A stretch of 64,000 nucleotides of DNA, taken from the IMG/VR virus record IMGVR_UViG_3300023235_001725. One strand, given 5' to 3'. The notes under the pieces are model-generated. The model ran no database searches and had not been told where the DNA came from. It saw nothing but the letters and a program-made list of their open reading frames with translations. Position numbers and translations under genes: made by a program. Shown in pieces: positions 907-51,044 of this stretch (the first letter of the stretch is position 1; each line of letters starts with the position of its first letter). The DNA is from a virus (taxonomy: Duplodnaviria > Caudoviricetes).

Positions 907-1731
907 TTAATTTCTTATATATGTGTTTACAAATCTTTTAACTCCCCCAGGCTTCATATTCAAAGCTTCGCAAGCTTGTTTCACCCAACCTCTTTTATTA
1001 AAATCAATATGAGACATGAGGTTTTTTCTTTTATTAACTTCTTCCTGTGAGAGCTTAAATTTGTTTTTAAACCCATCTTTCATCTTTCTACCTTTTACCC
1101 ACCCTTGACTAAAGAAATCTTCAATAGTCTGTTTGTTAACTTTTTTAGAATCAACTCCATTATTAATCCAGCAAGTATTAAATTGAGAATTAGATTTACC
1201 AATTCCTTTTCCTTTCTTTACTATTCTCAACTTTTTAATTGTCTCAGGTGTATGCTCTTTTCCTGACCAATCATAATGGTCTTGAATGTTTGGTATTCTT
1301 CCCTCTTTGTAGGCTTTTTTTAATCCTTTTAACCTAGCTTCCTCCCATTTCTTTTTAAACTTCGGGTTTTCATCTGCTTTTTTCTTAGCTGCTTTAGCAG
1401 CACAAATAGACCTATGCCTCTGATGCTCATCACTGATAAATCCCCCTCTGCCTCCTGGCATTAGATTCATACAGTCATTCTTAGCAATTTCCTCCAATGT
1501 CACGACCTCTTTTTCCTTATCAATCAACTCCTTTCGAGAATTGCAAAACTCAAGTATCTCTCTGGAGTGACATTCAGCTCCATGCTTATTGACAGAACGT
1601 CGAAGACGCTTACCTGAACCCAGGTATCCATCTTCAACTACATCGGTGGAATGCATCCCAATATAATATCTACCCGTTAGGGTATTAGTGGTTTTGTAGA
1701 TGTAATGAAACTTCTTTTCTTTTCTAGGCAT
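907..1731 (-). CDS. Free-standing GIY-YIG homing endonuclease with NUMOD3-like DNA-binding motif
   Basis: N-terminal YIYKTTNTLTGRYYIGMH and HTPETIKKLRIVKKGK; sits between tRNA genes like T4 SegB. Confidence 0.85.
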   Translation of the reverse strand: MPRKEKKFHYIYKTTNTLTGRYYIGMHSTDVVEDGYLGSGKRLRRSVNKHGAECHSREILEFCNSRKELIDKEKEVVTLEEIAKNDCMNLMPGGRGGFISDEHQRHRSICAAKAAKKKADENPKFKKKWEEARLKGLKKAYKEGRIPNIQDHYDWSGKEHTPETIKKLRIVKKGKGIGKSNSQFNTCWINNGVDSKKVNKQTIEDFFSQGWVKGRKMKDGFKNKFKLSQEEVNKRKNLMSHIDFNKRGWVKQACEALNMKPGGVKRFVNTYIRN

Positions 1732-13252: not shown

Positions 13253-14869
13253 TTACTTAACTAAGAAACCAACTTCATAAGTCATCCATCTGAGTTTTTC
13301 TTCAAGGATTTTATAGGCTACCGTTAGTTTTTTAAATAAATCTGGCTTGTCTTTTTTCCAATGCTCCTTTAGTTGAGAATAACCCGCATCCCACCTGTCC
13401 AAATGGAGTTCTGGGTGAGCTTTGGCATAAACCATTCGTTCTGGGCCGCTCCAATATAGCATTTTATTAGCTATCTCCAACACATCTACTGCATCTTGAG
13501 ACATGTGTTTCACATTGCTCTGAATCATACTGTTCATTATCGTGGCTGACCTGTCTTGTTTATGTTCAATGTCTATTAGACATGGGTCGCCCCAGAAAAA
13601 GCTGTTTCTTACATCATATTCCTGCTTTTTAAAAACAATTCCGCCTATCGAACTTTGATGTGACGCTGAATGGAACAAAGAGTAAACTAAAGAGTCTGCA
13701 GCGTATTGATTCCATAGTTCAGCAGAGGTGTTTGGGGCCATGTATTCGTCTTTTTGGTTAATCCAGGTGGAATACGGTCCCACGTGAGTCTTTCGTGCCG
13801 CAAACAAGCTACAAACCTTCTTTAGATTATCTGGTATAATAGAGAACCCGTTTCCTTTTGACGCAGCCCAGCTATATAGCGCTACTTGTTGTGGGTTTTC
13901 ATAAATATTGTTTGATGCATTCAGAAAATATCCAATCGCTCCATCAACAAGGCTTCCTCGCATTGTTTTGCCTTCCACTTTCCATTTTAATGCACTTGTG
14001 AACTGAGGAATGTTTTTATTTGACCTTAATCCTTTTGTCTCTTCCCTTGCCCAGATAGATGCTGCTTCTCTTTGGTCTGTGTTGTATAATTCTTTACGTT
14101 TTGGAAGAACTCCTTTGATGCGAGGGTCTGCAATCACTTCATAACTCCAAGATGTTCGTTCATCTAATCCTGGGGTCATCAAAGTGAAGGTTATTCCCCA
14201 GTCTGACTTTACCTCCATGAATTCTGATGCTGGAAACAAAAAACCGTCTTGGACCCTAAAATTCTTAAACATCCTTTCTCTAAAAGTTTTAAAACTTGAC
14301 CCAGTTAAAAAAAGAGGTGGTGAAAACACGGCAATTACAACATTGGAAATACCATATGCTTCTTTTATCGCATTGATGCGATAAAGAAACTGAGCGTAGA
14401 GCTGTTGAGATGACTTTCCCCAACCGTTTTCTCGCATTTCATTATTAATCCAAGTCTTGGCTGTTCCTGATTTATGGCTTGAGGTTGCTCCTTTATTGTT
14501 AGCGGTTGCGTATGGAGGATTTATTAAAAAGACGATTGGTTTGTCATCTTTTATTGCTTGTTTTAAAGCTGGCGACTGAGTCGTTAGCTTTTCAGAGTCA
14601 TCATTAAGGAAGTCAAACTGAAAAGCTTGCTGATTTGAAACTGTTTCACACTTATCAATATCAGCTTTATGAAGAGTTGAACTATACAATTCTTTAAATT
14701 CATATCCTTGGGTAAGGTTCATAAAGCCCGAAGCACAGTCCCACACCACATACTCTTGTTTCCAGTTTTTTCCCAAGTTGTCCTGAATCAGCCTATGTGC
14801 TTCGTCCACCCATATTTGAGGTGTATAAAATTCGCCTTCTCTTTTCTTTTTATCCAATGTGATAGTCAT
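13253..14869 (-). CDS. Large N6-adenine DNA methyltransferase-like protein (MTase plus probable specificity region)
   Basis: GEFYTP, VVWDCASG and FLINPPYA motifs. Start moved to MTITL (14869) because the longer ORF reads through an attC-like site. Confidence 0.75.
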   Translation of the reverse strand: MTITLDKKKREGEFYTPQIWVDEAHRLIQDNLGKNWKQEYVVWDCASGFMNLTQGYEFKELYSSTLHKADIDKCETVSNQQAFQFDFLNDDSEKLTTQSPALKQAIKDDKPIVFLINPPYATANNKGATSSHKSGTAKTWINNEMRENGWGKSSQQLYAQFLYRINAIKEAYGISNVVIAVFSPPLFLTGSSFKTFRERMFKNFRVQDGFLFPASEFMEVKSDWGITFTLMTPGLDERTSWSYEVIADPRIKGVLPKRKELYNTDQREAASIWAREETKGLRSNKNIPQFTSALKWKVEGKTMRGSLVDGAIGYFLNASNNIYENPQQVALYSWAASKGNGFSIIPDNLKKVCSLFAARKTHVGPYSTWINQKDEYMAPNTSAELWNQYAADSLVYSLFHSASHQSSIGGIVFKKQEYDVRNSFFWGDPCLIDIEHKQDRSATIMNSMIQSNVKHMSQDAVDVLEIANKMLYWSGPERMVYAKAHPELHLDRWDAGYSQLKEHWKKDKPDLFKKLTVAYKILEEKLRWMTYEVGFLVK

Positions 14870-15069
14870 GCTTTTAATATGAGCATGAGCGTAAAAAAAA
14901 GAAAGGAACAAATAATAAAACGGTGCATACGCACAATGCTGATAGCAAACTTTATTATACACCTTGTTAGTTATACACAGTACGGTTATTTAAGGTAGAA
15001 TTTTGATACGAAGAAAGAATAAACTTTTTAAAAATGTGCGGTGAAAATTTTAATTCTGAATATTTATAT

Positions 15070-15327
15070 GTGAACTACCCATCTACAGCAAGCTGATGGA
15101 AGGGCTTCTAAAAAAATATAAATGCAAAGAGCAGATACATATTCAGAATTTACAGCGTTTCGTAGACTTGCCCATTGGCAACGCCTCACCGCCTTTTTAT
15201 TTATCCTGCGAAGTTGGCCCCAACCCACAGCTTAATATTTTGTTTCGCTTATGATTTTATGCAAACAACGAAAAAGAACTTATTTGTAAATATATAAAAA
15301 ACGCTTACATCTCACCCACGCTAAATC
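15070..15327. mobile_element. Non-autonomous IS200/IS605-like remnant (PATE/MITE-like)
   Basis: Left end GTGAACTACCCATC...GATGGAAGGGCTTC hairpin and right end CGCTTACATCTCACCCACGCTAAA (half hairpin) resemble IS200/IS605 ends; no ORF between them. Confidence 0.5.
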
Positions 15328-15329
15328 AT

Positions 15330-15647
15330 ATGGAACAAGAAAAAAAATTAAAGAACTTCATTAAAACTACAATCATAGAGTTTTTTAATGAACAATATGA
15401 AAATATTCAACATTATGATTTATTTGAATATTATGAAAAACAACCAAAAGAATTAAAGGTAATTGTAGATAAATATTTGAATTTATTAGATAAACGTAAA
15501 GGTTATGATGTGATTAAGAAATTTCACGATGCAGTTTATAAAATAGGTTATACGTTTGATAGTGGATTAGATGCTGAACCACACGGTTTAAGACCCATAG
15601 GGGTTAAATTAAATCAGTTGGTAGGTTGGGAAGATATAGATAATTAA
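15330..15647 (+). CDS. Hypothetical cassette protein with an N-terminal FIKTTIIEFFNE motif
   Basis: ORF; motif shared with neighbouring cassette genes. Confidence 0.65.
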   Translation: MEQEKKLKNFIKTTIIEFFNEQYENIQHYDLFEYYEKQPKELKVIVDKYLNLLDKRKGYDVIKKFHDAVYKIGYTFDSGLDAEPHGLRPIGVKLNQLVGWEDIDN

Positions 15648-15903
15648 AACACGAATGTAGTATTGTGTATAACGCCACTTTTCATTTGTGAAAATTTTAT
15701 CACCAATATTCTCATTTACAAACTGCTTAAAGTTCTTAACTTTATCAATCATTTCTCTCATATCTTTACTCACTGGTCTGTTCATTTTCTTGGTTGTTTG
15801 TTAGTGTATGCCGTACACTGTATTGAATTTATTCGCTTGTTATGTGTAAGTGTTACATTCATCGTTCTAATCAACATTTAGGTTAAAAAATTTAAAAGAC
15901 AAT

Positions 15904-16299
15904 TTACCCCAATATTTTTTGAACCCAATCAGGTAATTTACTAAATTTAATTAATTTACATTTTACTGTTGGTAAATTATTTCTAATTGATTTTTGAATC
16001 CTGTGATTTCCATCAAGAATATATTTAATAGATTTATCATCATTCATCAAAATCAATACTGGGTATTGTATGTCGGATTTTTCTATTTTATCAATTTCTT
16101 CTGTGTTTCCGTCCCAAGTTAATACAATATTTTTTAGTTTATTGGTATCCATTTCTTGAACTTTAATGTTTTTTGTAAGGTCTAATATCTGAACTAACGT
16201 AACTGTTTGGTTGTCATTATTTGTCCAAGATGTATCTTCTAAACCTTCATTCAAAAATTCTCTTATAGTTGTTTTAATAAATCCTCTCAAATCTTTCAT
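15904..16299 (-). CDS. ParB/sulfiredoxin-like domain protein with an N-terminal FIKTTIREFLNE motif
   Basis: YPVLIL...ILDGNHRIQK motif. Confidence 0.7.
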   Translation of the reverse strand: MKDLRGFIKTTIREFLNEGLEDTSWTNNDNQTVTLVQILDLTKNIKVQEMDTNKLKNIVLTWDGNTEEIDKIEKSDIQYPVLILMNDDKSIKYILDGNHRIQKSIRNNLPTVKCKLIKFSKLPDWVQKILG

Positions 16300-16502
16300 T
16301 GTTTTCTTTTATATATAAATACTTAGAATTTAAATTTTTGTTTATTTCTTCGTATCAACATTTTACCTTAATTAACCACACCCACACATAACAACGTGTA
16401 TAATAAAGTTTGCTATCAAGTTCAGTGGTAATTTAAAAGTTCATCTAAGCAAACCTTCTCATACACCCATTCGTTACCCACAATGTAAAAAGCCGCCAAG
16501 CT

Positions 16503-17021
16503 TTACGGCTGTATGTTTAGCAACTCTTTTTCTCTTTTTCTAATACTTCTATAATCTATAAAGTTATGTGTTCCTTTATTCGCTTTTTCGCCAAATATTA
16601 TAATACTCATTCCCATCCATAAACCTCGTGGTTCATCATTAAAATTTACTTCACCGTTTATAAAACGTATTTCTGCATCAATCATAGTTTCTGCCCACCA
16701 TTTTGTATTACTTCTTACTGGTATTAAGCAAACTTTTGTGCCACCATTTATTAACGCTTCGTTATGTGCTTTTTTAACCCATTTACTTAAATTTCTATCA
16801 AATGGAGGGTTCATCCAACAATTACCAATCCAATCTTTATTTAAAGAATTATCTTCTTTAGTCCAGTATTTTGGTAATTTATGATTTAATGAACTTGCAC
16901 AAACATCAGTAGTTATTGCAAACTCTTTTATTAAAGGTTGTACAATCGTTTTAGGTGTACTATACTCAATGCTTTTACTCTCAAAAGAGTTGTTTTTATT
17001 TCCAATTTTATCTATTCCCAT
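16503..17021 (-). CDS. Phage N6-adenine DNA methyltransferase (PF05869-like)
   Basis: YSTP, DVCAS and CWMNPPF motifs. Confidence 0.85.
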   Translation of the reverse strand: MGIDKIGNKNNSFESKSIEYSTPKTIVQPLIKEFAITTDVCASSLNHKLPKYWTKEDNSLNKDWIGNCWMNPPFDRNLSKWVKKAHNEALINGGTKVCLIPVRSNTKWWAETMIDAEIRFINGEVNFNDEPRGLWMGMSIIIFGEKANKGTHNFIDYRSIRKREKELLNIQP

Positions 17022-17207
17022 TCTGTATGTATTTGCCCTCGTACCTCACGCACGGCTTTTTAAAAAGTGGGTAACACCGTATAAAAAACATTGCTAAATT
17101 GTGCAATATCAAAGGTCTGTTAATATTAATTTACTTTATTTCTAATCGTTAATTCTGTGCTTTCTAAACGCAACATTTCTTATACATGTACGTTAGCAGA
17201 AATAAAA

Positions 17208-17414
17208 TTATCCAGCCACCACACCATCAATAACCTTTCGTAGTTCAACATTTATTTCATCTCGCAAGTCCAACAATTCATCCATTGTTAAGTAACTTAA
17301 ACTATCTTCATTCAGCCATAGTTCAAATGACCTTCTACCAGTTGAATGATAGATACGAATTGTTTCAATCTTCGTTTTCAGTGTTTCCGTTTGTCCCCCG
17401 TCTTTGATTTTCAT
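17208..17414 (-). CDS. Hypothetical cassette protein
   Basis: ORF filling one cassette. Confidence 0.6.
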   Translation of the reverse strand: MKIKDGGQTETLKTKIETIRIYHSTGRRSFELWLNEDSLSYLTMDELLDLRDEINVELRKVIDGVVAG

Positions 17415-17523
17415 TTTTGTTTCAATTTATATTTACGAGCATCCCACGCTCAAAAGGGATAATTTTACATCTGCTAATGCTAACAACGTATAAAGTGCAT
17501 TAAAACGCCACTTATACTAAGCA

Positions 17524-17724
17524 TTAGCAAACATTAAAATCCACCTCTCTACCTTCTCCGCAAATATGGTAAAAGTCTTCTTTGTGGGCTTGCTCTCCTT
17601 TTTTCCAAACCCTTATATAAACATTTCTCGTAATTTTATTTCTCCTTGCTTTTATACCGTTTAGCTCTCCGTACTCAAACGGTTTGCTAACAAAGTATAA
17701 ATAACATTGCTTAATTAGGTTCAT
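17524..17724 (-). CDS. Hypothetical cassette protein whose start (MNLIKQCYLYFVS) lies inside the attC-like site
   Basis: ATG at 17724 is within site 17682-17779; the stop TAA lies in the core of the next site. Confidence 0.55.
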   Translation of the reverse strand: MNLIKQCYLYFVSKPFEYGELNGIKARRNKITRNVYIRVWKKGEQAHKEDFYHICGEGREVDFNVC

Positions 17725-17783
17725 AGTTTTAAATTTAGTGCTGCAAGTCGCAACGTTTCTTATACTAGTCATTAGCACCAATA

Positions 17784-18359
17784 CTACGAAAGTACTTCGA
17801 TTGAAAGTATTTTAATTTTAGTTTCATCGAATATCAATAAATTTAATTCTTTTGTTTCGATGATATATGTTCCGTCATAACCATTAAGTTTCAACCAATC
17901 ATATACCCAAGTTTGCTCAATTGATGAATAATCACCATCCAATAAATTATTATACTTTCTATCAATGTCATCATCAGGAAATTTATCCTCGATATATTCT
18001 AAAAGATTTTTACCAATTACATAATATTCTACGCCAATTTTATCATTTACTTTACTTTTTTCATAATACATTAATAAATCATAGGTTGATGGTAACTTTC
18101 TAAAATCTATAATATTATTAGTTAAAACTTGAATTTTGTAAATATGTGGTGAATAATTACCAGCATAGTATTTAGCAAATTCAATATTTGATGTTAAAAA
18201 TATTGGTGATTTGTAATTTATATCAAATAAAGTTCCGTTTTTTATCTTGAATTTATCGAATTTTTCTTTAGAACCGTGATACCAAGTATTATCATTTACT
18301 ATAAGTTGCTCATTAAGATATTCTCTAATCGTTGTCACTATAAACTTTCTCAATTCCAT
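17784..18359 (-). CDS. ADP-ribosyltransferase-like protein with an N-terminal FIVTTIREYLNE motif
   Basis: WYHGS...IFLTSNIEFAKYYA...YII-E pattern; start moved to MELRK. Confidence 0.5.
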   Translation of the reverse strand: MELRKFIVTTIREYLNEQLIVNDNTWYHGSKEKFDKFKIKNGTLFDINYKSPIFLTSNIEFAKYYAGNYSPHIYKIQVLTNNIIDFRKLPSTYDLLMYYEKSKVNDKIGVEYYVIGKNLLEYIEDKFPDDDIDRKYNNLLDGDYSSIEQTWVYDWLKLNGYDGTYIIETKELNLLIFDETKIKILSIEVLS

Positions 18360-18416
18360 TCTTTTATATATAGATATTCCAAAATTAAATTTCTGACAAA
18401 CAAACCGTACTGGTGC

Positions 18417-19200
18417 TAACGCTATGTATATTCCAGTTTTGTGAAAAACAAAACCGATAACATACATTTAACGTTATGCTCCATGCCTTAGTTCAGTTCT
18501 TCAATTTAACATTTGTGATAAAAAACAAAAAGAATTTTGCCAACGCACCTTATTTTTCAAGACTATCTCTGTTTATTAATTTCTTTCATCACTTCACTAT
18601 AATTCATATTAGGTTCGACATCGTAATAATTAATTACATCCTTAAAAACATCTTCACCATCAAATCCATCTCCAAGTATAAAATTTGAACTTTTAAACAC
18701 TACAAGTTCTTGTTGTAGACTATCTTTATGATGCCAAGAAATATCTTCAATTTCTTCAATAGCCTTATTGAACGATTTTTCATCATCAAATCCATATCCT
18801 GATAAACCCCATTCGGGTTCACTATTCCACATACCATTTGTAACATCTTTTCTTGGTGGATATGGTACATATTTACCGTCCCCAACTCTCTCGTTGTAAT
18901 CATCCATAGCATCTTTCTCCGTTTCAAACCATGCTTGCATATTTCCACTAAAATTACGTCTAGTATCATCATCTGCATCGCTTGTCCATCTTAGAAAATA
19001 TTTGGAATTATTAAGATTTTCATTTACAAATTCCTTAAAGTTCTTAACTTTATCAATCATTTTTCTCACATCTTCGCTCATAGTATCTTTATATAAAAAT
19101 AGTTTCAAATAAACATCATCCTTTAATAATTCAACACGTAGCATAACGCTATGTATATTCCAGTTTTGTGAAAAACAAAACCGATAACATACATTTAACG
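18417..19200. repeat. 57-bp identical direct repeat (18417-18473 and 19144-19200): two copies of one attC-like site
   Basis: TAACGCTATGTATATTCCAGTTTTGTGAAAAACAAAACCGATAACATACATTTAACG occurs twice. Confidence 0.95.
18563..19081 (-). CDS. Hypothetical acidic cassette protein with a KNFKEFVNE motif
   Basis: ORF; start moved to MSEDV. Confidence 0.65.
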   Translation of the reverse strand: MSEDVRKMIDKVKNFKEFVNENLNNSKYFLRWTSDADDDTRRNFSGNMQAWFETEKDAMDDYNERVGDGKYVPYPPRKDVTNGMWNSEPEWGLSGYGFDDEKSFNKAIEEIEDISWHHKDSLQQELVVFKSSNFILGDGFDGEDVFKDVINYYDVEPNMNYSEVMKEINKQR

Positions 19201-19212
19201 CTGTGTGTAATG

Positions 19213-19395
19213 CTACACTTTTGTACGTCTTGGCGGTGGCTTAGATTTTTTGGTTCTGATTTCTTGGAAGTCACACTCTTTGTCGTAAAATTTACTACAA
19301 CATCTTGCGCCTATTCCAAACAATGAGCGTTTAATATTTTCATTGGTACACCAAGCACCTTTGTTATTATATTTACAATTTATCTTTCTTTCCAT
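19213..19395 (-). CDS. Small Cys-rich hypothetical cassette protein
   Basis: ORF filling one cassette. Confidence 0.55.
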   Translation of the reverse strand: MERKINCKYNNKGAWCTNENIKRSLFGIGARCCSKFYDKECDFQEIRTKKSKPPPRRTKV

Positions 19396-19460
19396 TTCAA
19401 TATTATTTAATTAATAATCCGCACTACACACAGCACTTTGTATAGTGCATAGTTCGTTCC

Positions 19461-19706
19461 TCACAACGCCACCATACAAGGGGCGTTGCCATTAGAGTTT
19501 AACCAAACATAAGCTGTCGGGTCATACTTTTTTGGCTTTCCTAAATATTGGCTTTTATCGCAAACCTTACACTCTCGTCTAAATCCTTGTTCGTATATCT
19601 GTTTACATTTTTTATCTTTAAATCTAGTCCATTTGCTTATCTCCCAAAAGTGTAAGGAAAAACGGCAACTAACATTGTATAAAAAACATTGCTTAATTCT
19701 ATTCAT
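19461..19706 (-). CDS. Hypothetical cassette protein starting inside an attC-like site (MNRIKQCFLYNVS)
   Basis: N-terminus paralogous to that of 17524-17724. Confidence 0.55.
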   Translation of the reverse strand: MNRIKQCFLYNVSCRFSLHFWEISKWTRFKDKKCKQIYEQGFRRECKVCDKSQYLGKPKKYDPTAYVWLNSNGNAPCMVAL

Positions 19707-19761
19707 AATTTTAAATTTAGTGCTGCAAGAACAGGTCTTTGAACTTGGGTCAAATCGTCCA

Positions 19762-20451
19762 TTAAAAAACTCTCTGTGTTAGTCTCTCAAATCCGTCCTT
19801 CCATGTTTCGTGTTTATCAAATCTTTCACCACAACCAGTGGTTCCACCTTTCCAGCTTCCTCTTCTCTTTCCTACTTCTGAAGAGAATTCAACGTCAATT
19901 GTACGACTCACTTGGCTGAACATAGTTGTTCGTTTGAACCATCTCATTCTCCATTCTCTCTCCGAGATGGATATATCGGCATTAACCACGTTCAGTTCTC
20001 CATTTGGAGTGTGCTTATCAACATACGGCATATTAGTTCTCCACATTTTCTCTTTCCATTCGTCTTTATAAAAGTCTTGTTTGTCGCCTTTTATTGAATG
20101 AACCCATGTTCCATCCTTCAGTTTAATGCTGTGGCGAACGTGGTCGAGATTCCAGGGCATATTAATGTATTTAGATTTCTTTCCGTAACGAATAACAAAG
20201 CTCTGACTCTGCCAACCATCCTGATACCAATAACAGCCGTACTGTTCTGAGTCGCCGTAATCCTTTCTCTTGTGTGACCAGGGCATACTCCAAAACAGGC
20301 TCCAGAATAGGAATGCTATATGGATTTGGGGTCTCTCATCATCAGAATACCCGTGGCACTCGTAAGTTAAGTGAAAAGCAACTGGTTTTCCCCAGCTGTA
20401 TCTATAAAATGATATATTATCGTTTTCAAACTTCTTTGTGGGGTTTCGCAT
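19762..20451 (-). CDS. Hypothetical phage protein
   Basis: 229-aa ORF. Confidence 0.7.
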   Translation of the reverse strand: MRNPTKKFENDNISFYRYSWGKPVAFHLTYECHGYSDDERPQIHIAFLFWSLFWSMPWSHKRKDYGDSEQYGCYWYQDGWQSQSFVIRYGKKSKYINMPWNLDHVRHSIKLKDGTWVHSIKGDKQDFYKDEWKEKMWRTNMPYVDKHTPNGELNVVNADISISEREWRMRWFKRTTMFSQVSRTIDVEFSSEVGKRRGSWKGGTTGCGERFDKHETWKDGFERLTQRVF

Positions 20452-20523
20452 TCTACAAATGTAATCAATTTTACAAATATAAAAACTGTTCGAAGGGCGG
20501 CCTTTTTCTATCTGTAATTCAAG

Positions 20524-20595
20524 AGGGGCGTAGGGGGTTCGAACCCCTGACGTACAGGGTTAAAGCCTGATGTTCTACCTCTGAACTAACGCCCC
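20524..20595 (-). tRNA. tRNA with anticodon TTA (ochre-suppressor-like)
   Basis: GGGGCGT-TA-GTTC-AGAGGTA-GAAC-A-TCAGG-CTTTAAC-CCTGT-ACGTC-AGGGG-TTCGAAC-CCCCT-ACGCCCC-T; 7-nt loop with U33 and A37. Confidence 0.85.
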
Positions 20596-20789
20596 TTGTG
20601 GTAATGTGCTATCCGATACAGCCAGTCTCCACAATACGGTGAAGATAGAATATCTTTCTTAGCCTGCATAACTCTTCGTAACGAGGAATATGGACCAGAG
20701 TATTTGGTCCAAGCCACCCTGGGGCGATGCTTAGCTGTATAGTTTGAAGTCCATTCTATATAATATCTCGTGTTATCTACAGTAGCCAT
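20586..20789 (-). CDS. Hypothetical protein; its TAG stop lies inside the suppressor-like tRNA
   Basis: ORF track. Confidence 0.5.
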   Translation of the reverse strand: MATVDNTRYYIEWTSNYTAKHRPRVAWTKYSGPYSSLRRVMQAKKDILSSPYCGDWLYRIAHYHKGR

Positions 20790-20808
20790 AGCATTAAAAT
20801 AGTGGTTA

Positions 20809-21567
20809 CTAACTAGGTTTTGAAGTTATCAACCATTCTTTTAATGTCATGAATTCTTTCACCTTACCTGGGACAGAATTTTCTAGTTTGGCTAACTTTA
20901 TGTTGATTTTATCTTTGTTTTTTCTATCATAGATGTAGTCTATTATGCCTGGATTCTCTTTAAAGTACCATATCGCATATTCTAGTGTTCTCTCTATTTC
21001 TTCATCAATGGTTTTTGATTCATCAATATGCGTCAATACAATGGTTGGAAAATAAGAGCAGCATGGAATGGCGTCATTGCAGTTTGTTGACATATGTATA
21101 CCATACTTTGATTTCTCTGGACTTTCTAACTCGAATATTTCCACGGACAAAGATTCTCCGATACTGTACAAGGATTTCATCCACGAAGGATTTCTTTCTG
21201 GATTAAACTCTGTGTCTTTTACAATGTAAGTCTGTTTTGATATTTTGCTTGCCATTTCTTGCGCTGATTCTTCTTTAGCATTTAATTGGTCTATTTTTTT
21301 AAACACATCTCCATACTCAGAGAAGATTAAATCTGTTTTTTCACAAAACTCATCTATTATATCAAAGAAGTTTGATGCCATTGGGCTCATGTAGTACATC
21401 AGTACAAAGTTGTAAGACATTCTGTCTCCATTCCAGTATTGGACTTCAAAACTAATTTCACCACCCAACTCGGTGCCAAAATTAATATCCACACACTCAA
21501 ACTTGTCATTATAATCCATTACTTTTTTAAACCAATCCATTATTTTTTTTGTTTTTAATCCTCGCAA
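20809..21567 (-). CDS. Hypothetical protein
   Basis: 252-aa ORF. Confidence 0.7.
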   Translation of the reverse strand: MRGLKTKKIMDWFKKVMDYNDKFECVDINFGTELGGEISFEVQYWNGDRMSYNFVLMYYMSPMASNFFDIIDEFCEKTDLIFSEYGDVFKKIDQLNAKEESAQEMASKISKQTYIVKDTEFNPERNPSWMKSLYSIGESLSVEIFELESPEKSKYGIHMSTNCNDAIPCCSYFPTIVLTHIDESKTIDEEIERTLEYAIWYFKENPGIIDYIYDRKNKDKINIKLAKLENSVPGKVKEFMTLKEWLITSKPS

Positions 21568-37746: not shown

Positions 37747-38181
37747 TTATTTTCCTTTTAGAATGGCCAATTCGTTTTCTAATTGTTTAATCCTGGATTC
37801 GTTTCGTGAAAGCTGATGCTTCTCTTCATGCAAATCTGCCGTGGCAATATCCTCTTGAGTAGATAATCGGAGCACTCCATAGTCAAACATATACCCACTG
37901 TGGTCGGAATGATGTTCAATTTTTACGTGGGTTGCTCCTTTGGATTTAAAGTCAGCAAGAAGCTTTTCTATTTGTTCAATAGAGACCCACGCCCCTCCTG
38001 CAGTTAGGTATCTATTGAGAATCTCACCATCTTTATCAAGGCGAATCTCACGCTTACAGTAAACGCAATCTGCGCCTGGCTCATTCCAGCCAGGGAGAGA
38101 CTCTCTGGTTTCGAAATCTAAGTCAGAAATCTCGGTGTCTCCGAAAATTTGAACTGTCAAACATTTTTCTATATCTCCCAT
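37747..38181 (-). CDS. Hypothetical protein
   Basis: ORF. Confidence 0.65.
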   Translation of the reverse strand: MGDIEKCLTVQIFGDTEISDLDFETRESLPGWNEPGADCVYCKREIRLDKDGEILNRYLTAGGAWVSIEQIEKLLADFKSKGATHVKIEHHSDHSGYMFDYGVLRLSTQEDIATADLHEEKHQLSRNESRIKQLENELAILKGK

Positions 38182-49894: not shown

Positions 49895-50170
49895 TTATAA
49901 CCATGATTCTTCAATCATTTTTCTCCTCGCTTCTAAATCAAGAGGACTCCATAATTCAACTGTTTCTTCTTGAAAATCAACCTCTTCATCCTTTGCCCAA
50001 AACCATCGAACCTGACTCACATTCTCTACAGTGTTGTATAGAAAGTGCCCGTCCTCCTCCACGGAGCTTTTAATCAAAAGCTCCCCATTAGGGATGCAAT
50101 TCCCATTTGAAAATATTTTAACCTCTTTAAGTCGATAATAAGCTACCTGTGTTTCAACACACTTACTCAC
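49895..50170 (-). CDS. Hypothetical protein
   Basis: ORF. Confidence 0.55.
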   Translation of the reverse strand: MSKCVETQVAYYRLKEVKIFSNGNCIPNGELLIKSSVEEDGHFLYNTVENVSQVRWFWAKDEEVDFQEETVELWSPLDLEARRKMIEESWL

Positions 50171-51044
50171 CGCTTCCTAGGTTTGTATTCAAAAACTCTT
50201 TTAGGGCAGAACTTTTTTCAAAAACCCTAAGCCTTCTAAGTGTGTCTTCTTTTATTTGTCTAACTCTCTCGTTGGTTAATTCTAATCTCTCAGCGATGTC
50301 GCGAAGAGTCGTAGCCTCTTCATTGTTTAATCCGAAATACATGTTTAATATAACCTTTTCTCTTTCAGTTAAATTGTCAAACAACTCGTTTAACTCATCT
50401 TTCAATGCCTGGTGATTCATATCTTGTTCAAACCGTTGATAAGAGTCTCCAATTAAAAAGTCTTTTACCTCTGTTTGTGAGTCAGATTTTATCTGGTCAT
50501 CAATAGAAACTTCGAAGTTTCCATTGATGTTAAAGCTTTTAATATCGCTTTCTGTAATTTCATCTATCTCGGCTAAGATTTCTTCATCAGAAGGCTCTCG
50601 ACCTAAACGTTGGTAAAGCTTTTCTTTTGTTTTTACAATCTTGTTGATGGAGTTGATTCGATTTACAGGGAGCCTGATGTTCCCAGAGTGGTCGTTTACC
50701 GCTTTTATAAGTGCGTGGCGAATCCACCATACGGCGTAGGAAATAAACTTAAAACCCTTTGTCTCATCAAACCTGCTAACAGCTTCCATAAGGCCGATAT
50801 TACCCTCTGAAATTAAATCCTCCAGAGGAAGTCCGCTGTATAGATATTCTTTTGCCACAGAAATAACAAATCTCAAATTAGTCTTTGTTAAGTCATGAAA
50901 TGCTTTCTCGTCTCCAGCCTTAGCCTTGACAGCCAGTTTAACTTGGTCATCCCCACTAAGGACTTCTATCTTTTTAATGTCTTTGTAATAGCTTTTTACG
51001 GAAACTGATTCCTTATAATAGCTACTTTCTCTTTCTTTTTGCAT
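50163..51044 (-). CDS. Sigma-70 family factor, Bacteroidota RpoD-like (no region 1.1)
   Basis: NLRFVISVAKEY, DLISEGNIGL, FDETKGFKFISYAVWWIR, IRLPVN and LTNERVRQI motifs. Confidence 0.93.
   Translation of the reverse strand: MQKERESSYYKESVSVKSYYKDIKKIEVLSGDDQVKLAVKAKAGDEKAFHDLTKTNLRFVISVAKEYLYSGLPLEDLISEGNIGLMEAVSRFDETKGFKFISYAVWWIRHALIKAVNDHSGNIRLPVNRINSINKIVKTKEKLYQRLGREPSDEEILAEIDEITESDIKSFNINGNFEVSIDDQIKSDSQTEVKDFLIGDSYQRFEQDMNHQALKDELNELFDNLTEREKVILNMYFGLNNEEATTLRDIAERLELTNERVRQIKEDTLRRLRVFEKSSALKEFLNTNLGSGE

Follow-up and report, generated by a model that had tools for sequence, protein, structure and literature searches.

What separates, and perhaps moves, the small genes at 14.9-19.7 kb of a 64,000-nucleotide stretch of tailed-phage DNA (Duplodnaviria; Caudoviricetes; IMG/VR record IMGVR_UViG_3300023235_001725), where imperfect inverted repeats alternate with nine units, here C1-C9? 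(The whole stretch is called the window below.) An initial annotation had read the repeats as attC sites and the units as circular cassettes inserted by G/TT crossover. The region is probably an orphan array, made up of mobile gene cassettes that belong to an integron-like system confined to Bacteroidota and their phages. The array is real, orphan and like a cluster of attC sites lacking integron-integrases (CALIN), and it lies outside the classical integron family; its mechanism we infer, with fair comparative support. The integron-like part of the earlier reading stands, on covariation, end complementarity, a linked recombinase and re-ordering of cassettes, while assignment to classical attC and IntI is opposed by an enzyme that is without the IntI insertion, and a single G|TT crossover is an incomplete account.

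In the mechanism proposed, each junction would be a structure-specific site, with one strand predicted to fold into an R box, an asymmetric spacer, an L box and a variable hairpin. The R box would consist of TAAC/GTTA with 4-6 further pairs specific to the unit, the unpaired spacer of 3 nt opposite 5-6 nt, and the L box of GTATAA/TTATAC. A Xer-like tyrosine recombinase would exchange strands in or next to the GTTA core (a putative cleavage point), and the cassette would extend, on the plus strand, from TTA-flank to ...flank'-TAAC-n3-body-n5/6-G. Because exchange would fall in or next to that core, a cassette's own ends would be complementary and the two flanks of one site would not. The enzyme is probably supplied in trans by a Bacteroidota host; that it acts in trans, and that the array is active in this phage today, is presumptive.

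Sites, units and the complementarity of unit ends

Reading of the sequence, a repeat finder and a script bear out the proposal that inverted-repeat sites lie between single-gene units. Read on the plus strand, the sites follow the consensus TAAC-n3-(G/A)T(A/G)TA...TA(T/C)A(C/T)-n5/6-(G/A)TTA, with the small variants ATGTAT, ATTA, CAGC and GTTG; the window thus holds hairpin sites with the TAAC/GTTA core, the GTATAA/TTATAC boxes and the asymmetry of 3 against 5/6 nt in the spacer. Seven are complete (16389-16476, 17072-17195, 17481-17526, 17688-17774, 18417-18476, 19144-19203 and 19431-19488) and four are half-sites or decayed (14940-14975, 15665-15673, about 15801-15842 and 19670-19729). In order along the window, the sites and units are:

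14940-14975, plus: half-site S0, with proximal arm, n3 and GTTA GTTA; inverted; low-coordinate end of the array
14970-15673, plus: unit C1, inverted relative to the other units; 105-aa gene 15330-15647 (plus); ends GTTATACACA / TGTGTATAAC
15609-15842, minus: decayed unit; 58-aa 5' fragment of a C7 paralogue; degenerate site with its final GTTA at 15839
15839-16392, minus: unit C2; 131-aa gene 15904-16299 (minus); ends GTTATGTGT / ACACATAAC
16389-16476, minus: site S3, a long-loop hairpin
16473-17075, minus: unit C3; Dam gene 16503-17021 (minus); ends GTTACCCAC / GTGGGTAAC
17072-17195, minus: site S4, a long-loop hairpin
17192-17484, minus: unit C4; 68-aa gene 17208-17414 (minus); ends GTTAGCAGA / TCTGCTAAT, then a second core, GC-TAAC
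17475-17526, minus: site S5, a family-typical short hairpin with loop CGTTTTAATG; covariance model 55 bits, E 1e-10
17523-17691, minus: unit C5 (169 nt); a doubtful short open reading frame (ORF) only; ends (A)TTAGCAAAC / GTTTGCTAA(C)
17688-17774, minus: site S6; left part 89% identical to S10
17771-18420, minus: unit C6; 191-aa gene for an ADP-ribosyltransferase (ART)-like protein, 17784-18359 (minus); ends (A)TTAGCACCA / TGGTGCTAA(C)
18417-18476, minus: site S7; body the same as that of S8, from TAAC through to G
18473-19147, minus: unit C7; 172-aa gene 18563-19081 (minus); ends GTTATGCT / AGCATAAC
19144-19203, minus: site S8, a copy of S7, followed by GCTG in place of GTTA
19200-19434, minus: unit C8; 60-aa Cys-rich ORF 19213-19395 (minus); ends GCTGTGTGTA / TACACACAGC
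19431-19488, minus: site S9, a variant with CAGC ... GTTG cores
19485-19673, minus: unit C9; ORF 19461-19706 (minus), overlapping both bordering sites; weak ends GTTGCC / GGCAAC
19670-19729, minus: site S10, truncated to proximal arm and loop; high-coordinate end of the array

Throughout the array the bases to the right of one site's GTTA complement those to the left of the next site's TAAC, and the two flanks of any single window site are non-complementary. Beyond the four-base core, perfect complementarity runs for 6 bases in C1, 5 in each of C2, C3 and C4 (the C4 count uses its doubled TAAT core), 6 in C5 and C6, 4 in C7 and 6 in C8, and for 2 only in C9. Added together the runs amount to 41 bases, whereas permuting the partners gives 9.9 on average; none of 100,000 permutations reached 41. 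The claim that each cassette's opening core complements its own closing core is therefore upheld, by 4-6 further bases, for eight of the nine units (C1-C8), which is the integron pattern of a cassette start complementary to the R'' of its own end site. In C3 the end pairing extends to 23 nt at 87% complementarity. The core itself covaries in C8 (GCTG/CAGC), and C5 and C6 are preceded by ATTA rather than GTTA, their complementarity beginning exactly at TTA; both features fit exchange directly before TTA.

Signs of duplication and decay are also present. The repeat finder recovered the two sites said to share an identical 57 bp, with 57-62 nt common to 18417-18478 and 19144-19205, and likewise the site present in both orientations (14940-14969 against 16389-16418, 29/30), which proves to be part of an inverted duplication of about 135 nt (14940-15074 against 16308-16418) that takes in a half-site, a 5' untranslated region (UTR) and the first codons of a gene; C1 is for this reason treated as an inverted unit. 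The similarity of S10 to S6 ends at 19729, as expected from the truncation described there. In the decayed unit, 15705-15772 is 88% identical to 19013-19080 of the C7 gene. Since the ORF at 19461-19706 runs into both flanking sites, the gene model of C9 is uncertain. An intrinsic terminator lies within C3 at 16491-16510.

The site family, its recombinase and its shuffling

A 21-base motif from S4, S6 and S10 matched four IMG/VR contigs, which by BLAST resemble the window only at the sites and, in one case, also in the 5' UTR of the Dam gene. The structural pattern TAAC-n5/6-GTATAA-n12-42-TTATAC-n3-GTTA matches at least 119 viral contigs and at least 120 genome contigs, those of the latter listed being nearly all from Bacteroidota (Flavobacteriales, Cytophagales, Saprospiraceae and others); the background of the regular-expression site detector is 2 sites in 528 kb of unrelated loci. 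When 35 short-loop sites were aligned, the helix was 95% paired and four variable inner-stem pairs showed 8 to 15 double changes, with flanks of the same site mostly unpaired. A custom covariance model of the kind suggested earlier, built from the sites of other contigs only, recovers S5, S7, S6, S4, S10, S8 and S3, all on the minus strand, and nothing significant elsewhere in the 64 kb. When all the loci retrieved are taken together, unit ends complement each other over at least 4 consecutive bases in 44 of 95 adjacent site pairs, against about 3 for shuffled partners. A search of Rfam gave no family matching the sites. With exact sites numbering one to three per bacterial genome, and those clustered, they are neither a dispersed repeat nor a general terminator.

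Two sequence features of the sites may be recorded here. A motif, GAGGTACGA (CGTACCTC on the opposite strand), is found repeatedly in the bodies of long-loop sites and also in the 5' UTR of the Dam gene, examples being at 17030-17050 of the window, at 38040-38075 of locus L263 and in loci L051, L043 and L187. In the short-loop subfamily the loop CGTTTTAATG is almost invariant, conserved loops being a feature that attC sites do not have.

The search for a recombinase beyond the window found a Xer-like tyrosine recombinase at array ends in Bacteroidota chromosomes and in some phages. The enzyme encoded by some site-bearing viral contigs is compact (199-269 aa), and the same clade ends all three chromosomal arrays first inspected, those of Tenacibaculum (L261), Rufibacter (L262) and Fluviicola (L260). 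In phages and chromosomes alike it lies at the GTTA end of the array. Among eight 20-kb loci chosen from the enzyme side, five have sites 3' of the enzyme with polarity opposite to its gene; the strict site pattern, sought within 1.5 kb on either side of 30 recombinase genes, occurs at 6 only. Of 81 genomes sampled from one flavobacterial family, about 68 have a high-scoring copy (E below 1e-67, well above the tier of housekeeping Xer proteins). Many of the copies in these 81 genomes lie within about 1 kb of a contig end, as expected if adjacent repeat arrays break short-read assemblies.

The families nearest to this enzyme are the integron integrase, XerA, XerD and XerC, with all matches below cut-offs (197 bits for TIGR02249, whose cut-off is 265). 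The IntI-specific insertion is missing, with 23 residues where VchIntIA (2a3v) has 66, and neither the window nor the family's enzyme provides the mark of a classical integron, an IntI with the additional domain (I2 helix region). Most members have the catalytic R, K, HxxR, H and Y. In the Tenacibaculum copy (L261 14400-15209, minus) Leu replaces the first catalytic Arg (GLLISE instead of GLRxSE), and that protein, judged by this residue, may be inactive.

In the window, Pfam scans of about 50 ORFs found no recombinase and no transposase, and a profile of the array recombinase found nothing in the 64 kb (best E 0.43), in agreement with the initial annotation that no integrase is present; the gene at the GTTA end of the array, where family arrays elsewhere have the enzyme, is a non-recombinase (13253-14869). 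The array is on this account an orphan member of the family.

Close relatives of this phage were sought in several ways. BLAST of 14000-21000 against 50,697 phage records gave no match, an exact 40-mer of the window had no match in IMG/VR, and no relative was found through the 229-aa Acb3 gene beside the array; relatives found through the 538-aa gene on its other side have at most 46% amino-acid identity and no arrays. With the nine cassette proteins as tblastn queries against all fetched loci, matches were weak or partial, with no identical cassette in another context. Comparison of cassette order was made instead for the site family in cultured phages. CALINs have been described in virulent phages, including Polaribacter phage P12002L (Qi, Rajabal, Ghaly, Tetu and Gillings 2023, PMC9892861), in which family sites surround methylase genes.

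The backbones of P12002L and P12002S are 99.7% identical. P12002L has the order gp36, gp37, gp38, backbone, and P12002S a gp38-like gene (98.6% identical), a gp36-like gene and then backbone, so that two methylase cassettes stand in opposite order. Identity runs to ...CAAACGTTA with divergence immediately after, placing the junctions inside a shared ACGTTA / GTTA core; close relatives thus differ in their cassette order, and the break-points are at the core. The gp38 cassette that has changed place is bounded by GTTGTATG.../...CATACAAC and has its site body 5' of the gene, the same shape as that proposed for the window (plus strand, TTA-flank ... flank'-TAAC-n3-body-n5/6-G). In a Cellulophaga phage, family sites flank a methylase gene of 90.5% identity, the ends being GTTATGCA/TGCATAAC. 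There is no recombinase in the P12002L annotation nor in the 15.7-kb part of P12002S. A repeat of about 68 nt ending TTATCCGTTGTTA, the element tested as P12002L_attC2 by Qi et al., occurs twice in P12002L (L263 29172-29239 and 37200-37265) and once in P12002S (L360 8831-8898), always at an edge between backbone and cassette.

Whether the sites act in DNA or in RNA can be approached through their polarity, defined by the strand that reads TAAC-n5/6...n3-GTTA. Flanking genes share this polarity in viral loci (80 against 4) and oppose it in bacterial loci (8 against 70): the site is upstream of the gene in phage cassettes and downstream in chromosomal ones, as in integrons. On the polarity strand G stands opposite T beside the core in 83% of sites, and the stems have 161 G.T against 59 A.C oppositions; by this excess one strand folds better, and that strand is the sense strand in phages and the antisense strand in chromosomes. 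Between phages and chromosomes gene direction flips, with polarity towards the recombinase unchanged. Since a signal in RNA should follow transcription and a site in DNA need not, this argues for a role at the level of DNA.

Recombination sites weighed against other roles

Several findings weigh against a cassette system, or against the simplest form of it. About half of the adjacent site pairs in the family have no complementary ends, the gp36 cassette of P12002L/S being an example. Besides the lack of a recombinase or transposase in the window, any tyrosine recombinase is present in only 6 of 49 site-bearing viral contigs (3 of the 12 complete ones). Four salt-lake runs yielded no circles or excision junctions, the Logan contigs being short and breaking at site edges, with few joints and with short sides or unknown inserts. 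The body of S4 and the Dam 5' UTR are about 90% identical to viral contig L008, which shares with the window the body, the R flank and the 5' UTR to the ATG and differs in the gene and the distal spacer. S7 and S8 have the same body with both flanks different, and in salt-lake metagenome contigs that body is found with other spacers and flanks. Finally, P12002L_attC1 (NC_028924 29974-30077), recognized from its primer in Table S3 of the Qi et al. study, is a member of the window's site family. One family member was classed as attC by HattCI (PMC9892861), and P12002L_attC1, alone among the sites assayed there, yielded no verified recombinants with IntI1 (PMC9892861). Its failure fits a different enzyme, and at the same time leaves the family without experimental proof. 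There are also 5' UTRs and N-terminal codons common to different cassettes of the array, and the reassortment of body, spacer and 5' UTR modules goes beyond what one G|TT crossover explains. As shared bodies and 5' UTRs appear with different genes, spacers and flanks, homologous exchange between modules also occurs.

These same modules are what a purely regulatory account would build on, in which the sites would be promoters with a terminator or stabilizing hairpin, comparable to the promoter early stem-loops (PeSLs) of T4-type phages, and the genes would be shuffled by homologous recombination with no dedicated enzyme. The upstream position of phage sites in one orientation (80:4), the different gene that follows the shared body, R flank and 5' UTR in L008, the 5' UTRs and first codons that array cassettes share and the scarcity of recombinases among site-bearing phages all accord with it, and PeSL-mediated shuffling is documented (PMC2839356, PMC4122927). 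Homologous recombination, however, predicts neither unit-specific complementary ends nor a covarying core; gene direction relative to the site is reversed in chromosomes with polarity towards the recombinase kept; and the P12002L/S junctions fall at the core, not within the long conserved body. Nor does the region show the early sigma-70 consensus and terminator stem-loops of PeSLs: sigma-70-type promoters and intrinsic terminators are not enriched, with 34 promoter-like matches against a shuffled expectation of 29.1 and 2 terminator-like against 2.2, in a scan for sigma-70-type promoters that has Bacteroidota-type promoters outside its coverage. As a full explanation the regulatory account is thus judged unlikely. 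A promoter inside the site body in addition to recombination is possible, and on our analysis body and 5' UTR may act together as a promoter module, as in PeSLs; that is ranked as an added layer and not the main explanation, since neither complementary ends nor a fixed geometry relative to the enzyme would follow from it.

Complementary ends could instead serve in RNA, as a panhandle joining mRNA 5' and 3' ends beside a hairpin, for processing of RNase III type or protection from decay. The end pairs do bracket single genes, the hairpins are intergenic and, in phages, the oppositions on the sense strand are compatible with G.U pairing. In bacteria, however, the same polarity is antisense to the genes (8:70), where G.U pairs would turn into A.C mismatches; no Rfam family corresponds, and a panhandle would explain neither the linked recombinase nor the changed order of cassettes. 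Such a role is considered improbable. Lower still is placed the notion that the hairpin bodies are small non-autonomous palindromic elements, akin to repetitive extragenic palindromes (REP) or miniature inverted-repeat transposable elements (MITE), inserted between genes with the cassette appearance secondary. Identical body cores with different spacers and flanks, and the recurrence of discrete body alleles in unrelated contigs, would suit it. Exact copies, though, number 1-3 per bacterial genome and are clustered rather than dispersed, insertion of a palindrome gives no complementarity at the far ends of a gene unit, and the window ORFs scanned include no HUH or transposase partner. Hairpin promoters of N4 type, ends of IS200/IS605 type and homing-endonuclease footprints were considered and dropped, with no supporting feature in the array.

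To the reading as an orphan cassette array a fuller scenario may be added, towards which we lean a little less than away from it. A host chromosomal Xer-like recombinase would shuffle, in trans during infection, the enzyme-less arrays of lytic phages, this one included; the phage cassettes, inverted so that site and 5' UTR precede the gene and each is self-expressing, would give phages a reservoir of anti-defence genes taken from a shared pool.

Setting, cargo and relation to known systems

The window is part of a large phage with a ribonucleotide reductase, a helicase-primase, a single-stranded DNA-binding protein (SSB), its own sigma-70 factor, tRNAs and a Lon-like protease, and almost all its genes are on the minus strand. 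The stretch is present in 24 salt-lake metagenome DNA runs, no RNA run being among those listed. GC content is 0.31-0.33 at 14-20 kb, where the array lies, against about 0.38 in the remaining window. Two non-cassette genes flank the array:

13253-14869, minus: 538-aa gene with a weak Eco57I-methylase-like match; non-recombinase
19762-20451, minus: 229-aa Acb3, an inhibitor of the cyclic-oligonucleotide-based anti-phage signalling system (CBASS) (PF25187, 7e-34)

Relatives of the 538-aa gene elsewhere have no family sites next to them. The Acb3 homologue directly adjoins the cassettes, just upstream of the array, which places the array in an anti-defence neighbourhood. Cargo consists of a Dam-type N6-adenine DNA methyltransferase in C3 (PF05869, 2e-21), the ART-like protein of C6, whose match to ART-PolyVal is weak (PF18760, 7e-6, below cut-off), and small proteins without family assignment in the remainder, the 105-aa product of C1 matching phrog_37263 (function unknown). 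A Dam methylase and ART-like cargo beside Acb3 point to anti-defence accessory genes.

Some of these proteins begin alike. The products of 15904-16299 (minus), 17784-18359 (minus) and 15330-15647 (plus), from C2, C6 and C1, have a common N-terminal leader (K/R)xFIxTTIREFLNE, and those of 18563-19081 (minus; C7) and of the remnant at 15609-15785 (minus) share MxxDxRxMIDKVKNFKxFVNEN. Such leaders could represent a shared 5' module that recombines, or they could serve in targeting, such as the packaging or injection of an ART-like protein. Elsewhere in the window, ARAGORN identifies a tRNA with anticodon TTA at 20523-20595 (minus) that would suppress TAA stops, an ORF at 907-1731 (minus) beside the tRNA cluster resembles a SegE-type GIY-YIG endonuclease, and a full sigma-70 family factor with regions 1.2, 2, 3 and 4 is encoded at 50163-51044 (minus), which bears on promoter readings of phage intergenic motifs.

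Integrons are held to depend on the extra domain of IntI, which enables recombination of folded single strands. With integrons and CALINs the family has in common arrays of mostly single-gene cassettes, the occurrence of enzyme-less orphan clusters, structure-defined sites with R and L boxes, an unpaired spacer, a variable hairpin and an AAC/GTT core, pairing of the cassette start with the R'' of its own site, asymmetric strands and, at one end of chromosomal arrays, a Xer/IntI-branch tyrosine recombinase; in those arrays the gene comes before its site and it is the bottom strand that folds better. Unlike integrons, it has an enzyme with no IntI insertion that scores below the TIGR02249 cut-off and is co-oriented with the cassettes, fixed TAAC/GTTA and GTATAA/TTATAC boxes, a conserved loop in one subfamily, restriction to Bacteroidota and their phages, and in phages a gene on the opposite strand with the site upstream; no attI or cassette promoter (Pc) was identified for it. 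The CALIN of Qi et al. is similar in that P12002L_attC1 lies among methyltransferase cassettes in a phage without an integrase; they took the sites as classical attC, however, and the other family sites of P12002L, the Xer-like recombinase and the chromosomal arrays are not described there.

The PeSLs of T4-type phages are mobile regulatory cassettes (Arbiol et al. 2010, PMC2839356; Comeau et al. 2014, PMC4122927), conserved stem-loop motifs that likewise stand on either side of small accessory genes in the hyperplastic regions of large phages, where they mark the points at which genes are gained, lost or replaced; common 5' modules are a further feature shared with the array. They differ in sequence and host range, and are promoter-terminator motifs recombined by homology, without unit-specific complementary ends or a recombinase. 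A further comparison is with Xer/dif modules (pdif of Acinetobacter plasmids, and integrative mobile elements exploiting Xer, IMEX), gene modules bounded by short sites and dependent on a Xer-type recombinase, which use double-stranded 28-bp dif-like sites and housekeeping XerC/D. The family boxes recall dif arms (TTAT..GTTA); the separate Xer-like paralogue, long hairpin sites and cassette-specific R-box extensions set the family apart.

In a full-text literature search no account was found of an integron-like system in Bacteroidota that has a Xer-like enzyme, and IntegronFinder 2.0 reports integrons as only rare in Bacteroidetes. If the system is as proposed, integron-finding tools overlook a whole phylum's worth of cassettes, and structure-specific cassette recombination either evolved twice or predates IntI. 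It is directly testable in cultured pairs such as Polaribacter with P12002L/S. For phages, even strictly lytic ones, it would amount to a defined route by which to swap anti-defence genes, such as the methylase and the ART-like gene that lie here beside Acb3.

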